From: Escherichia phage vB-EcoP-XT18
Direction: 5' to 3' (one strand)
DNA length: 64,000 bases
Sequence record: OR757434.1
Shown: in pieces, positions 2,806 through 51,450 of the stretch
How positions within the stretch are numbered: position 1 is the stretch's first letter
Layout: every line of letters begins with the position of its first letter
The notes under the pieces: generated by a model
Told to the model about the DNA's origin: nothing
What the model saw: only the letters and a program-made list of their open reading frames with translations
Databases searched by the model: none
Made by a program: the position numbers and the translations under genes

Positions 2806-3339
2806 ATGAGTTTACTAGGAAGTGTTGAACTGCATGATGTAATTGACAATGGCTATCTGGATGCGGAGCATAAGTATGTTAACGCTGCTAGTGTGGATAT
2901 CCGTATTGGTGATACTATCCTTGTTGAAGAACAGGCTGATGGCATCGTTGATATTGATGCGAAAGAGAATCTTCAGTGGAAGGAAGTAAAAATCCCTGAA
3001 GAGGGCTTGGTTATCACTCCGGGTCAGTTCTTCTTGGCTCACTCTATGGAGGAGTTTAATCTTCCAGATAACATCTCAAGTCTGTTTGTTCTGCGTTCGT
3101 CTATGGCTCGTTGTGGTTTGAACCACCTTCACGCCGGTTGGGCAGATGCAGGATTTAATAGCAGTAAGCTGACATTTGAATTCCATAACGTAACCAAGCA
3201 CCACAGTTTACGAGTTCGTGCTGGTATGCGTGTTGGTCAGATGGTGATGTTTGAGCACTCTCATGCAGGGGAACATTCCTATGCAGTGAAGGGGCGTTAT
3301 AATAACTCTGAAGGTGTAGTTGCATCTAAAGGTGTGTAA
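2806..3339 (+). CDS. dcd: dCTP deaminase
   Basis: ASVDIRIGDT, RSSMARCGL and YNNSEGVVASKG align by eye with E. coli Dcd motifs. Confidence 0.8.
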   Translation: MSLLGSVELHDVIDNGYLDAEHKYVNAASVDIRIGDTILVEEQADGIVDIDAKENLQWKEVKIPEEGLVITPGQFFLAHSMEEFNLPDNISSLFVLRSSMARCGLNHLHAGWADAGFNSSKLTFEFHNVTKHHSLRVRAGMRVGQMVMFEHSHAGEHSYAVKGRYNNSEGVVASKGV

Positions 3340-15601: not shown

Positions 15602-15867
15602 AAGTTATTGTTTTAAGTTAAGTTTTCTTTTGATTTTAATAGAGAATCAAAGTCCTAGGAGTCCTCAACCTAAATCAAGGATTTCCTCAATTCTCTATTT
15701 TTATCTCGCAGGTGTCTCCTGCCCTTCGGTACTTGCAAGGGTTACGATGATTGCCCAATATACAAGCCTGCAATAGCTTTACTAGCTATACAATATATAC
15801 ATTACTAGTGTGTTATATCTACTACCAAAGATACTTATATTATATAGTACCCTTATCGGTATAAGCG

Positions 15868-15876
15868 TAATGTATA
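15868..15876 (+). promoter_or_regulatory. TAATGTATA, putative phage-sigma-dependent promoter
   Basis: in the 330-bp intergenic region upstream of 15935; an inverted copy lies at 15795-15803. Confidence 0.45.
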
Positions 15877-15934
15877 CTATACATAACCGCTCAAAGAGAG
15901 CAACAATCTTTCAAATTAAATAAGGAAATTAATA

Positions 15935-41889: not shown

Positions 41890-41920
41890 AAACGAAAAAA
41901 CCCCGCCCGAAGGCAGGGTC
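41890..41920 (-). terminator. rho-independent terminator (minus strand)
   Basis: CCCUGCC-UUCG-GGCGGGG then UUUUUUCGUUUU on the minus strand. Confidence 0.65.
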
Positions 41921-41925
41921 TAATT

Positions 41926-47356: not shown

Positions 47357-48898
47357 TTAGTAGCTCTGATTCCATCTGCTTACGTTTGCCTCATACAAAG
47401 AAGCGCTTCCGTAGCTAACATCATGCTTAGAGCGACCACGATGTGTAACAGAGCACGCTGAATAGCGCATTGCATCCATTAAGTCATCATGTTCTTTAAT
47501 AATCTTACCAACCTTACGGTGATATCTAGCTTTCTCTTCGAATAGCTTAGCGTTAGCGGCTGTGTTAAAGACTTTAAAGCGTCCACTCATCATTCTTTCT
47601 CGGATATCTGTGATTCCCGGTTCTACAAAGAAGTTCTTTTTACCATCCATTCCAATTTTGTTGTAGAAGGTCTCACTCTGTACGTTAACTCCTGCATTCT
47701 TATAGAATTGAGCAACAGATGAGCCACTACCTTTCTCAGTATTGTCCGCATCATGCGGTAGGATGACAGGAATCCACTGACCACGACCATTAATAGCTGG
47801 AGCATGATACACTGGAGTAAAGCCACCTTCTTTATATGAGTCGTAAACATAGATAGTATCCGTGTTTGCATCGTAAGCTGTCCAAACAGCAGCAGTTGGG
47901 TGATCAATACCAATATCAATTGCACAGACACGTTTCCACGTATCAGGAATTTCGAATGGTTCACATTTAATTGTGTCATCCGATACATCATATATCAAAC
48001 CACTTCCTAACAATGGCATACCTTTTGAACGCATCTCTAACTGCCACGCTGGAATACCTTCAGTCATATCTTTTATATCTTGGTCAGTGATGTGTCCACC
48101 TAGGTCTGCATGAGCATCCCACCAAGAAGCATTCTGGAAATACAGAGAACCTGTGTTCTCATCTCCTTCACCTTTCATAAATTTATCTACCAGTTCAGTT
48201 AAACCGTTCTCTGGTGTAGCTGTAATTGTAACTAGACCTTTAGTTGTGAGTGTACGTGTGACGCACTGTGCGAATATAGCCATAGACTCGTATGGATCTT
48301 CTTCGTCTAACCAAATGTAGTCAACTGTTGCACCCATCAATGTGTGTTCACCCTGTTGGGTTGAACGGAATTCTAATGTACTTAAACCGTCAAACTCTCC
48401 TCTCTCATTTTGATGTTTGATTTGTACGATTTGAAGTTTGTTACCATCTCGTTCTATCGTATCAATGACGATAGCATCACGAGGAATGACACCTGTCCCT
48501 AATAAATTTGTATCCTTTCCGATAGGTGTACCAAACAATTCCTTTTGCAATACTTTCCTTGTGGAATCCCCTGTAATACCAACTGCCCATGCTAAGATAG
48601 GTCTTTTAAATTTATATCCTGTCCACCAAGTTGGGTAGCGACCTGTGACATGACAAGCAAACTCGTATGCCTCGCTATAAGATTTACCAACACGGTTCGC
48701 TGCACACAAGAATCTAAAGCGATGCTTCAATCCTGCTGCATAAAATTTCTTTTGGAAGTCATACGCCTTGAAAGACAAAATCTTATTATACTTCCTCCAT
48801 TGGTCACGCTCTTTCAACATATTCAATAGTGCTTTCTTTTCGTCTACACTAAGGTTGTTACCAGTTAGAGCTTCATAAATTTGTTTATCTAATGACAT
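47357..48898 (-). CDS. terminase large subunit
   Basis: Walker A-like AANRVGKS; size and position upstream of the portal. Confidence 0.75.
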   Translation of the reverse strand: MSLDKQIYEALTGNNLSVDEKKALLNMLKERDQWRKYNKILSFKAYDFQKKFYAAGLKHRFRFLCAANRVGKSYSEAYEFACHVTGRYPTWWTGYKFKRPILAWAVGITGDSTRKVLQKELFGTPIGKDTNLLGTGVIPRDAIVIDTIERDGNKLQIVQIKHQNERGEFDGLSTLEFRSTQQGEHTLMGATVDYIWLDEEDPYESMAIFAQCVTRTLTTKGLVTITATPENGLTELVDKFMKGEGDENTGSLYFQNASWWDAHADLGGHITDQDIKDMTEGIPAWQLEMRSKGMPLLGSGLIYDVSDDTIKCEPFEIPDTWKRVCAIDIGIDHPTAAVWTAYDANTDTIYVYDSYKEGGFTPVYHAPAINGRGQWIPVILPHDADNTEKGSGSSVAQFYKNAGVNVQSETFYNKIGMDGKKNFFVEPGITDIRERMMSGRFKVFNTAANAKLFEEKARYHRKVGKIIKEHDDLMDAMRYSACSVTHRGRSKHDVSYGSASLYEANVSRWNQSY

Positions 48899-49059: not shown

Positions 49060-49533
49060 TTAACTCTCGTCCGCTTCCTCCCCCTTTTCAGCGTCCTCAG
49101 AGTTGTCTTCTTCTGGAGGCATAACGTCGATACCAAGTGCTCCAGTCAAGAAGTCCTTGATTTGTGCATTCAATGATTCTTCGTTAATTACATTCTCTTC
49201 CTCAATCTTAACTTCAACAGAGGCCGCCTTAGGATATACCAGATCTGCAACTTTTGATGCAGCCTTGAATCTAAGATCAGGTGGAATATTAGGATCTTCG
49301 TAAATTTGAATTAACACTTCATCAGGAGACAAATGACTTGCAGCAACACGGTCCAACATTAATTGTGTCAGTTTACCTCTACTACCTCTGGGTCGTCCGA
49401 ATTTATTTCCCTTTTGAAACTTCCCATTGCTTGGGTTCATACCACGGCCTTCAAGTTCTTCCGTTACTCCGGGTAATCTTCCTGTAATCTCAGCTACCTG
49501 TGCAGGTGTGAGTTCTCCGTTTTCTCCAAACAT
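49060..49533 (-). CDS. putative terminase small subunit
   Basis: directly upstream of the large subunit; basic GNKFGRPRGSRGK segment and acidic C-terminus. Confidence 0.4.
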   Translation of the reverse strand: MFGENGELTPAQVAEITGRLPGVTEELEGRGMNPSNGKFQKGNKFGRPRGSRGKLTQLMLDRVAASHLSPDEVLIQIYEDPNIPPDLRFKAASKVADLVYPKAASVEVKIEEENVINEESLNAQIKDFLTGALGIDVMPPEEDNSEDAEKGEEADES

Positions 49534-49555
49534 TTTATACTCCTTCTACATTATC

Positions 49556-49585
49556 AACAACACAAAAAGCCTCCCAAGGGAGGCA
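49556..49585 (-). terminator. rho-independent terminator (minus strand)
   Basis: GCCUCC-CUUG-GGAGGC then UUUUUGUG on the minus strand. Confidence 0.55.
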
Positions 49586-49589
49586 AACA

Positions 49590-50222
49590 TTACTTACAAT
49601 CACCAACGGACAGGTTAAACATCTTACCTAAAGTAACTATCTCACCCTCCCACGGAAGTTCTACACCCTTCTCTTCCTCTAAAAGAATAGAGCCGTCGAC
49701 CAAAAATTTTTCGTAGTCTCGCAGTGCGTCGTCTACTAACTCACTCTTGTGAATCCACGTAATTGTTTCTGTACCATCTTCTTCGATTCGAACATCACGA
49801 TGCCATTCATCTTTAGAGGTAATGTAATCATGGAGCATTTCATATTCAGCTTCTTCAATCATCTCAATCATTGCACGAGCATAGTCAGGAAGGTGATCAT
49901 GTTTAGTAGATTCATATTCAACTACTTCCAGAGTAGATGGTTGTGTTTTAGTTTTAGAGTTAGGGCGAGTAGTATGAATCAAATCTAACATGTTTTTGTT
50001 CTCCGTAATATTTGGTTTAAGAATACTTCCACTATACAAATCTTGTACAGCCAGTCCTGAGATGTTTCCCATAGTTTCTAAATGTTGTAAGCTACAACCA
50101 GAGCGACATAGCTGTGAATTATACTCGTTAAGGTCCATCGCTTGGGTGTGGAAAGGAGAGCCAGAAGGGAAACTACCTCCATAAATACCTTCCATGTTAC
50201 GTGCGATTATTTGATTATTCAT
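49590..50222 (-). CDS. hypothetical protein
   Basis: ORF at the head of the late operon. Confidence 0.45.
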   Translation of the reverse strand: MNNQIIARNMEGIYGGSFPSGSPFHTQAMDLNEYNSQLCRSGCSLQHLETMGNISGLAVQDLYSGSILKPNITENKNMLDLIHTTRPNSKTKTQPSTLEVVEYESTKHDHLPDYARAMIEMIEEAEYEMLHDYITSKDEWHRDVRIEEDGTETITWIHKSELVDDALRDYEKFLVDGSILLEEEKGVELPWEGEIVTLGKMFNLSVGDCK

Positions 50223-50469
50223 CTGTCTCTCCCTTGCTGTAATCTTTATACGTTTCTACTTTGTAAGTGCAGAATGCTCTAAAGAAGAGCCAACCTAAGC
50301 TACTCACATCAATGGTAATATCGAAATCTGTTTCATCATCTAGGTCAACAAGACGACCTAAGCATGTAGCTTCCATCCCATCTTCAGAGTCACTATTGAC
50401 TACGAAAGCGTATGTCTCCGTTCTGAACCGAGGCACTATCTCTGATAAAAAGTCTAATACTAAATTCAT
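50215..50469 (-). CDS. hypothetical acidic protein
   Basis: first ORF of the minus-strand operon, with AGGAG RBS. Confidence 0.45.
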   Translation of the reverse strand: MNLVLDFLSEIVPRFRTETYAFVVNSDSEDGMEATCLGRLVDLDDETDFDITIDVSSLGWLFFRAFCTYKVETYKDYSKGETDE

Positions 50470-50495
50470 AACTCTTCTCCTCTGAATAAGAGTAT

Positions 50496-50622
50496 AAAGG
50501 GCTAGTCATATCTAACCCGTAAAGGCCACGTCATCAAAGATGACTACCTCATACTAACAACCCGTGTACTCTGAAGTAAAGGGCATGTCATAAAGGCACC
50601 CTCATGTTAAGGCCATGTCATT
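50496..50622. repeat. four iteron-like direct repeats, AAAGGSCAYGTCAT
   Basis: copies at about 50496, 50521, 50578 and 50608, just upstream of the late operon. Confidence 0.6.
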
Positions 50623-51009
50623 AGTCATACTTGATACATCTTGCTATAGAGAAGCAGATGAATAAACAGAAGACTATTACTAACCAAAAGATTATTTCCA
50701 TTAAGACCTATCCACCCACGTACTGAATCTCAACTTACCACATTCCTTACACTTCCATGTTGATAGGTAGAGACCGTGTATTCTTTCATCCCCGTAAGCT
50801 TTACGAAGAAGGTAGTAATTGTGCTTACACTTCATCCGTCTAAATACTTTAATTAGATTCATTAAGTTCTCTCTTAAGCTTATATATAACAGTTCAAAAT
50901 TCTGATTTGACCGAGTGGGGCTAGGCCCTCTGCGGCGAATTGTTAAAAAGGGGGAGTCCTCAAATAAAAAATGGTTATTGGCAATGCCTTTACACCTTCT
51001 TCCACGTTC

Positions 51010-51450
51010 CAACCTTTCCCCGTGCCTACTCCCCGTAATTATTCCCCCGTGTATACTACCCAATACATTACCTACCCGTTTATTTAGTTCCCCTTTACTG
51101 AATGGATGAAAGGCTAGCACTGTATAGGCCAACTGATTAGTCTGCTAATAATGCCATTAATGATGGTCACCACTCCCCATAGTTTGAGTGTAAATAGTTT
51201 CAATAGTGATTGTTATGAGTGCAATAATGATGTATGTATTAATTAAGTGGATGATTGTGTTTCTTTTAATAATTTCTTTTAATTACTTTCTTTTTCAGCG
51301 TGCATGAGCGTAGCGAATGGTCTTTGATGTTTGAGTTATACAATTATTTAAGTGGTATATTATTACCGCACTATCTGGCAATGTTCCCCCGTGGTCTGTC
51401 CTGCGGTTGTATGTTCCCCGTCCTATAGAGATAGTAGAAATATTTTACCC
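51010..51450. repeat. dispersed YCCCCGT short repeats in an ORF-poor AT-rich region
   Basis: at least seven copies (51014, 51028, 51041, 51070, 51393, 51415, 51443). Confidence 0.45.

Follow-up and report, generated by a model that had tools for sequence, protein, structure and literature searches.

The left-end operon of this phage contains an array of five full 15-bp direct repeats at 50495-50621 on the minus strand of the window (the whole 64-kb stretch of DNA that was analysed). The array is a real, conserved and previously unannotated cis element. Its repeat unit is bipartite and reads RTGR-N3-(G)SCCTTWA on the minus strand, with three semi-variable bases between the halves. Judged from the sequence, the array could plausibly be a cosB/pac-like binding array for the small terminase (TerS) gp6, i.e. 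a packaging-recognition element. No prior description of it was found in the SU10, SU7, YF01, Privateer and 7-11 papers or in the SU10 promoter table, the original phiEco32 papers being outside this scope. A full-text literature search with the motif strings returned unrelated papers only.

Four repeat copies had originally been predicted in this region. All four are present: the pattern AAAGGSCAYGTCAT is found at 50496 (2 mismatches), 50521 (0), 50578 (0) and 50608 (1). The count itself has to be raised to five full units and a degenerate sixth. In the order of the minus strand, the region comprises the following elements:

50701-50715, minus strand: degenerate sixth unit GTGGATAGGTCTTAA across the gp1 stop codon, recognized by comparison with relatives
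50607-50621, minus strand: unit 1, ATGACATGGCCTTAA, fits RTGR-N3-5-SCCTTWA; the fourth copy of the original prediction
50591-50605, minus strand: unit 2, ATGAGGGTGCCTTTA (plus strand TAAAGGCACCCTCAT), fits the motif; absent from the original prediction
50577-50591, minus strand: unit 3, ATGACATGCCCTTTA, fits the motif; the third predicted copy
50559-50575, minus strand: conserved spacer block TTCAGAGTACACGGGTT separating the two unit clusters, from the alignment of relatives
50530-50544, no strand assigned: palindrome GTCATCAAAGATGAC, an inverted extra ATGAC half-site beside unit 4, read from the sequence
50520-50534, minus strand: unit 4, ATGACGTGGCCTTTA, fits the motif; the second predicted copy
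50495-50509, minus strand: unit 5, ATGACTAGCCCTTTA, fits the motif

The distance of unit 2 is 16 bp to unit 1 and 14 bp to unit 3, and the same spacings occur in all relatives. The CCTTTA core of unit 5 begins 31 bp ahead of the gp4 ATG, a distance shared by nine of 19 phages examined. The unit at the gp1 stop codon is complete (...AGGCCTTAA) in phiEco32 (match at position 403), NJ01, SU10 and others. Palindromes resembling GTCATCAAAGATGAC are present in ES17 and Bas92; sequence comparison identifies this palindrome as a lineage-specific insertion.

The motif RTGR-N3-5-SCCTTWA was counted on both strands of the window. Five matches were obtained, and all five are located inside the array. In the window, the motif shares this restriction to a single locus with cosB/pac-like terminase recognition sites. 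The 7-mer core SCCTTWA is present in five copies within 130 bp, while the biggest cluster in 300 first-order Markov simulations of the window comprised at most three. For the pattern AAAGGSCAYGTCAT, a single further match, with 2 mismatches, was found in 64 kb; by chance, a mean of 1.35 matches is expected, and five were reached in 3 of 100 shuffles.

The view that the repeats are too dense to be independent promoters was borne out, and they are also unlike sigma-70 and gp36 promoters. A scan of both strands of 50490-50700 for sigma-70 promoters (TTGACA-N16-18-TATAAT-like) found no promoter-like site. The gp36 consensus tAATGTAtA with at most one mismatch has no match in the same interval, the nearest being P6 at 49545-49553. 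Furthermore, the -35 regions of six gp36 promoters contain no GCCTTTA element. No minus-strand ORF of at least 40 aa covers the array. Three further candidates were rejected. A terminator-like hairpin at 50499-50518 seems not to be conserved, as judged by eye in the sequences of relatives. The mini-ORF reading (M-x-x-P-L) is at odds with the conservation, since the base directly ahead of the core varies less than those preceding it, unlike in wobble; in addition, a Shine-Dalgarno sequence is lacking and the frame breaks in phiEco32. Resemblances to sigma-54 sites, the MotA box and nick sites (TACT/RTGMC) do not hold across the copies.

The region 49500-52500 matches phiEco32-like podophages (Kuravirus, Gordonclarkvirinae), with vB-EcoP-XT32 as the best match (98% identity). 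The minus strand of the window corresponds to the phiEco32 plus strand. On it, the order is terminal repeat, sigma-70-like promoter, gp1, array, gp4, gp5, terminator, P6, gp6, TerL and portal. The annotated elements are:

50880-50915, minus strand: putative sigma-70 promoter of the left-end operon with the extended -10 box TGTTATATA, conserved in sequence
50701-50862, minus strand: gp1, 53 aa, with a zinc-ribbon-like CxH...CxxC pattern, a phi32_1 homologue by translation and PHROG 7696 (E 3e-16)
50215-50469, minus strand: gp4, an acidic protein of 84 aa, a phi32_4 homologue by translation and PHROG search
49590-50222, minus strand: gp5, 210 aa, with an inherited 'ABC transporter' label
49569-49584, minus strand: intrinsic terminator closing the gp1-gp5 operon, from a terminator scan
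49545-49553, minus strand: gp36-dependent late promoter P6, TAATGTAGA, from a consensus search
49060-49533, minus strand: gp6, putative small terminase (TerS), from profile search, position and annotation
47357-48898, minus strand: large terminase (TerL), with Pfam Terminase_6N and Terminase_6C

The left-end promoter is named 'potential sigma-70 promoter' in SU10 Table S2 (PMC4281155), and a promoter is annotated at the homologous position in phage 4E8. Because of this predicted promoter, the SU10 authors consider the homologues of gp1, gp4 and gp5 early genes and let the late genes start at the gp6 homologue (PMC4281155). The consensus tAATGTAtA has been described upstream of phiEco32 gene 6 (PMC4331800; the consensus is also taken from PMC8948821 and PMC12276001), and SU10 Table S2 gives the P6 sequence as a late promoter (PMC4281155). 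A terminator is annotated in Paul, 4E8 and WFI101126 at the place equivalent to that of the gp1-gp5 terminator. The array had been assigned to the head of the late operon, immediately upstream of the first minus-strand late gene. This assignment has to be abandoned: the array lies between gp1 and gp4 in the operon for which the SU10 authors expect early expression, gp1 is encoded further upstream, and the operon of the downstream gene ends at the terminator before P6.

Several side observations concern this neighbourhood. gp1 also weakly matches a zinc-finger PHROG; Pfam matches were found for none of gp1, gp4 and gp5. Many records, and also PHROG 12176, label gp5 as 'ABC transporter'. Since gp5 has neither a Pfam match nor an evident ATPase motif, this label looks spurious. 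The gp36 late promoters P6 and P13 are each directly preceded by a strong intrinsic terminator (49569-49584 and ~41890-41925, minus strand), so that the late region is cut into insulated units. Between the gp1 stop codon and the first unit, an 85-bp AT-rich indel (50622-50700) is carried by this phage, 4E8, WFI101126, ECBP2 and TH38 and is absent in phiEco32, NJ01, Paul, SU10 and others. It contains a 22-codon plus-strand ORF (MNKQKTITNQKIISIKTYPPTY) antisense to the 3' end of gp1. Farther away, at 15787-15886, two perfect TAATGTATA elements (15796-15804, minus strand; 15868-15876, plus strand) are found with near-copies alongside; from the sequence, this pair looks like divergent gp36 promoters in the middle-gene region.

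The arrays were compared in 19 phages from three genera of Gordonclarkvirinae (Kuravirus, Suseptimavirus and Nieuwekanaalvirus). A motif search of this kind had been recommended along with the original prediction, which would have been contradicted by repeats that are not conserved in related phages. The repeats are conserved: besides the single array locus in the window, the search found an array in each of the 19 phages, always with 4-7 identically oriented units that lie after the gp1 stop and before the gp4 start. Among 115 units compared, T-8 and G-7 are 95-96% conserved, and CCTT and A+5 are at least 95% conserved; CC, TT and A+5 served as search anchor. The flanking G/C positions of the unit are strongly biased, while the three spacer positions vary freely. 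In the tandem part, spacings of 16 bp (37 times) and 14 bp (23 times) often alternate to yield a 30-bp double unit. The tandem units are followed by a TCAGCGTACAyGGGTT spacer and two more units; this spacer is nearly invariant in 12 aligned relatives, and related yTCAGnGTA blocks come after units in 7-11-like phages. The combination of conserved cores and variable spacers in the 19 relatives agrees with the suggestion that the repeats are candidate protein-binding sites. A search of viral contigs for related loci had phiEco32 and NJ01 as its sole matches.

In three of these phages, small ORFs are located exactly between units (phiEco32 489-744, ES17 507-825, NJ01 ~2350-2490). Each of them is preceded by a copy of the ribosome-binding region TTCAGAGGAG / TTCAGAGGA. 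These arrangements suggest that the repeats serve as points of recombination for moron-like genes. In phiEco32, genes 2 and 3 overlap each other as well as units of the array, and therefore may be partly mis-annotated.

The array is linked to the genome end in position and sequence:

50923-51115, minus strand: direct terminal repeat of 193 bp, one copy in the window; the genome left end is 51115
50978-50992, plus strand: inverted unit TTGGCAATGCCTTTA in the terminal repeat, read from the sequence and conserved in the alignment

In the alignment, window position 51115 corresponds to base 1 of the phiEco32 genome, and the independent records of Paul, YF01, SU10, IMEP8, WFI101126 and LAMP start exactly at the equivalent base. 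Paul and YF01 are annotated with a direct terminal repeat at 1-193, and the same 193-bp repeat has been described for SU10 (PMC4281155) and YF01 (PMC9965538). The array is located ~300 bp inside the left terminal repeat in the window and ~220 bp inside it in phiEco32. It lies between the genome end and the genes for TerS and TerL, ~0.9 kb upstream of TerS, and thus shows the proximity to genome end and terminase genes known from cosB/pac-like sites. In the complete phiEco32 genome, the full motif has nine matches, six in the array, two in the terminal repeat and one elsewhere. The two matches in the terminal repeat correspond to one inverted unit per repeat copy and are the only minus-strand matches of the full motif. 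In addition, four of five lineages with a junction-spanning record have a GCCTTWA-like element 15-25 bp beyond the left repeat boundary; in the window and Bas94, only near-matches are present there. The terminal repeat starts with AGCCTTTC, and it has the motifs ACGGGTAGGT and ACACGGG in common with the array spacer.

Both repeat boundaries, 51115/51116 and 50922/50923, read GCT|AGCC on the minus strand, with the flanks ...CAGTGCT|AGCCTTTC on the left and ...GGGCCT|AGCCCCAC on the right. The same reading applies to Paul, YF01 and SU10, and the right boundary of phiEco32 is GGCT|AGGC. This shared sequence suggests a common nicking sequence for the terminase. Within the terminal repeat, the stretches 51015-51061 and 51069-51082 hold three tandem CACGGGG/TACGGGG copies, spaced 13-14 bp apart, and AAACGGGTAGGT; the related motifs ACACGGGTT and TTACGGGTT(A/T)G recur in the array spacers. 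The sequence TAATGTATT at 51062-51070 (minus strand), also inside the terminal repeat, is one mismatch away from the gp36 promoter consensus. Since phiEco32 and NJ01 have TAATGAATA instead, it is probably not a conserved promoter.

Beyond the Gordonclarkvirinae, homologues of gp6 with 45-62% identity over the aligned part are encoded by Grimontviridae (7-11, A24, PKM.Hi.22.6, Privateer, BUCT695), PJNS034 and Aeromonas phage LAh_8. Upstream of each of these distant homologues, a conserved CCCCTTTTT...GCTAGCCCC block is present, which in Kuravirus forms the inner end of the terminal repeat. Downstream, between this block and the TerS gene, units of the same orientation follow; in Grimontviridae, the array is located directly between the repeat boundary and TerS. 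The unit reads ATGAC-N2-3-sCCATCWA in the 7-11 group and ATGA-N3-GGCATGWA in PJNS034 and LAh_8. This means, the first half ATGA(C) is common to Kuravirus and the distant relatives, while the second half is clade-specific. Phages of the same or closely related hosts differ in the second half-site, which points to a phage-encoded reader rather than to a host factor. No gp1 homologue was found in distant relatives with arrays (7-11, Privateer, Aeromonas phages); gp1 was therefore rejected as array-binding protein, and it is the genome end and the TerS gene that the array accompanies, rather than gp1 or gp4. The first 50 kb of 7-11 contain units at 1515-1595 only, and four of four motif matches there are in the array.

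Three observations on these relatives stand apart. Weak homologues of gp4 are encoded directly downstream of the TerS gene in 7-11 (2157-2390) and PKM.Hi.22.6 (2938-3177), with tblastn E values of 7e-4 and 0.019; from this position in Grimontviridae, the acidic gp4 may belong to the packaging module. 7-11 (~1355-1410) and PKM.Hi.22.6 (~2150-2210) have another sequence of the late-promoter type, GTAAGA-16-ACTA, with the conserved palindrome TGAACTAAAGTTCA and ~150 nt without annotated gene downstream of it, located between the two unit clusters. This stretch could correspond to a small late transcript. Finally, ~21 nt separate a CCCCCTTTTT block (~50944-50965), which is followed by GCTAGCCCC, from the terminal repeat's inner end. 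The block and GCTAGCCCC are conserved across Kuravirus, Grimontviridae, PJNS034 and Aeromonas phage LAh_8, so that the block could predict the termini of these phages, several of which have unmapped ends.

The best TerS candidate is gp6, and this assignment is moderately supported by weak profile matches, gene position and a published HHpred statement. With a profile of 58 gp6 homologues, the top two PDB matches were the small terminases 7joq (E 0.0019) and PaP3 6w7t (E 0.032). The YF01 record annotates the gp6 homologue as small terminase, and the assignment has been published (PMC9965538). A PDB search with the single gp6 sequence and a Foldseek search with the gp6 AF2 model (pLDDT 70) yielded no significant match. 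Within gp6, conservation is highest in the basic FxxGNxxGRxxGxR...TQ segment (residues 39-63).

The array is unique, located near the terminal repeat and on the terminase side, and has an inverted partner in the repeat. A recognition site for the packaging enzyme fits these properties best, and among the three functions originally offered (regulator or replication-initiator binding, or packaging signal) the packaging signal thus appears the most suitable. There is a good, if not quite even, chance that the array acts in cis as a DNA site for a phage-encoded sequence-specific DNA-binding protein, with gp6 as the most likely one. We infer both the identity of this protein and every step of the following model. 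A TerS oligomer would bind the bipartite units (five plus two) located shortly inward of the left terminal repeat as well as the inverted unit within the repeat. For recognition, it would use a conserved element that reads the family-wide RTGA(C) half and a second one for the clade-specific half (SCCTTWA), one helical turn away. The TerS-DNA complex would then recruit TerL, which would cut at both GCT|AGCC repeat boundaries, and packaging would run rightwards from the left end. Several points speak against a packaging site, besides the weak profile matches behind the assignment of gp6 as TerS. The 14/16-bp spacing is out of helical phase and awkward for simple wrapping round a ring. Kuravirus has the promoter and gp1 between repeat and array. 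In 7-11-like phages, unit clusters are found ~30 bp upstream of a late-promoter-type sequence, and a role in transcription would fit this equally well. Moreover, conservation tracks phylogeny, so that any conserved phage protein could be the reader.

By anatomy, the closest known system is the left end of T7; by presumed function, lambda cosB and the pac sites of P1 and SPP1 are closest. T7 has eight CCTAAAG copies at 175-340, mostly 13 bp apart, directly inside its 160-bp repeat, and three more copies within the terminal repeat. This array is reportedly called SRL by Dunn and Studier in 1983, and we know of no established function for the heptamers. A short direct terminal repeat and a same-orientation array of a 7-bp core are common to both systems, but the core sequences are unrelated and the T7 units are not bipartite. 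Whereas the copies inside the T7 repeat are direct, the Kuravirus copy is inverted. The T7 array abuts the repeat, as do those of 7-11-like relatives, while in Kuravirus the promoter and gp1 intervene.

The cosB element of lambda, which occurs once in the genome, is made up of R3, R2 and R1, three 16-bp sites to which the small terminase gpNu1 binds. The lambda ends are cohesive, an IHF site is present as well, and cosB is found no more than ~170 bp from the cut. The Kuravirus array resembles it in its short repeats just inside the cut on the terminase-gene side, in the one inverted copy and in its uniqueness in the genome. It differs by the 193-bp direct repeat, the 5-7 units and the 220-300 bp between repeat and array; furthermore, TerS is of the PaP3 type here and of the Nu1 type in lambda. 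P1 pac contains 4 plus 3 hexamers, and the repeated boxes of P1 and SPP1 are recognized by the small terminase or PacA. Like P1 pac and SPP1 pacL/pacR, the array is a cluster of short repeats. P1 and SPP1 use headful packaging with a cut within or beside the site, and P1 depends on Dam methylation; in contrast to P1, GATC plays no part in the Kuravirus array.

As the main alternative, which we consider unlikely, the units could be operator or activator sites for a phage transcription regulator. Such a regulator could act on the left-end operon in Kuravirus or on the late promoters ahead of TerS in 7-11-like phages, either as a roadblock or by coupling late transcription to packaging. The array is indeed located in a transcribed intergenic region, 31 bp ahead of the gp4 start, and the zinc-ribbon-like gp1 is encoded directly upstream, its stop codon overlapping the first unit. 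The absence of a gp1 homologue from distant relatives that still have arrays argues against gp1 in this role. In 7-11 and PKM.Hi.22.6, each unit cluster is found ~30 bp upstream of a GTAAnn-16-RCTA late-promoter-type sequence, in 7-11 at positions 1369 and 1637. In 7-11, a search with the published late-promoter consensus (PMC8948821) found promoter-type sites upstream of genes 1, 8, 12, 16, 22, 28, 48 and 69. Units are present near the two gene 1 promoter-type sites only, but at none of the seven other late promoters recovered in 7-11, nor at P6, P13 and P26 of this phage. In addition, the Kuravirus array is 900 bp away from the nearest mapped phage promoter, and a regulator would leave the inverted copy in the terminal repeat unexplained. 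A link between transcription and packaging is known from T7, so the roles of regulator site and packaging site need not exclude each other.

A role of the units as iterons of a replication origin, or as sites of end replication or concatemer formation, with a phage replication protein as their binding partner, is improbable. The units share with plasmid and phage origin iterons the arrangement of several direct repeats in one cluster, here a unique one near the genome end. Moreover, array and terminal repeat have ACGGGTAGGT, ACACGGG and the inverted unit in common. The minor origin region of T7, phiOL, adjoins the comparable left-end repeat array. However, the tandem spacings of 14 and 16 bp are not multiples of the helical repeat (~10.5-11 bp), even though pairs of units give a 30-bp period. 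No initiator-like gene is adjacent, gp1, gp4 and gp5 being without Pfam matches. The sole AT-rich stretch beside the array, 50622-50700, is an indel absent from most relatives, so that a conserved AT-rich unwinding element is missing. The original suggestion of replication iterons is not supported.

A function of the units in mRNA, as a boxA-like element for loading of Nus factors, a processing or stability element or an element for translational coupling (AUGA), is very improbable. In its position between gp1 and gp4, the array is part of the transcript in sense orientation, and from the upstream promoter the terminase genes would be reached only by reading through the downstream terminators. 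Two units match seven of eight boxA core bases (GCCCUUUA compared with boxA GCUCUUUA). boxA/nut sites pair with a boxB hairpin or an rrn-type context, but no boxB-like hairpin is present at the array. Relatives have CCAUCAA or GGCAUGA in place of the boxA-like core, and a second half-site that differs among phages of the same or related hosts is unexpected for conserved host Nus factors. The array has no Rfam match at E values up to 1, and its RNA fold reaches a z-score of -1.8 (11 of 200 shuffles fold as well). In addition, the inverted copy in the terminal repeat argues against an RNA element.

The least credible reading, that the repeats have no function of their own and are recombination scars or boundaries from gain and loss of small moron genes, would account for the variable copy number (4 to 7) and the small ORFs with their TTCAGAGGAG copies between units in phiEco32, ES17 and NJ01, but core positions are nearly invariant in three genera and an equivalent array persists in other families without genes between units.

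Returning to the packaging site, array and inverted partner might, as a more tentative generalization from the sequence comparisons, be the packaging-initiation site of a large set of podophages with short terminal repeats, comprising Gordonclarkvirinae, Grimontviridae, Lahexavirus and relatives with PaP3-type small terminases. Its bipartite code would consist of the family-wide RTGA(C) and a clade-specific half. A 2026 review rates the initiation of packaging in phages whose terminal repeats are short and exact (T3/T7-like phages, T5) as less well understood than in cos or headful systems (PMC13595956). If the proposal is true, the array would be the first defined terminase recognition element for the short-terminal-repeat packaging class, and its variants would provide a natural series of terminase specificity swaps. 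Should the element instead be regulatory, it would reveal an unknown DNA-binding factor common to several phage families. With a defined cis element, DNA recognition by a PaP3-type small terminase could be tested directly, and the hot spot for insertion of small genes at the left end would be explained. Kuraviruses are under development as therapeutic coliphages, and such an element would mark a sequence to keep or to exploit in phage engineering or packaging vectors.
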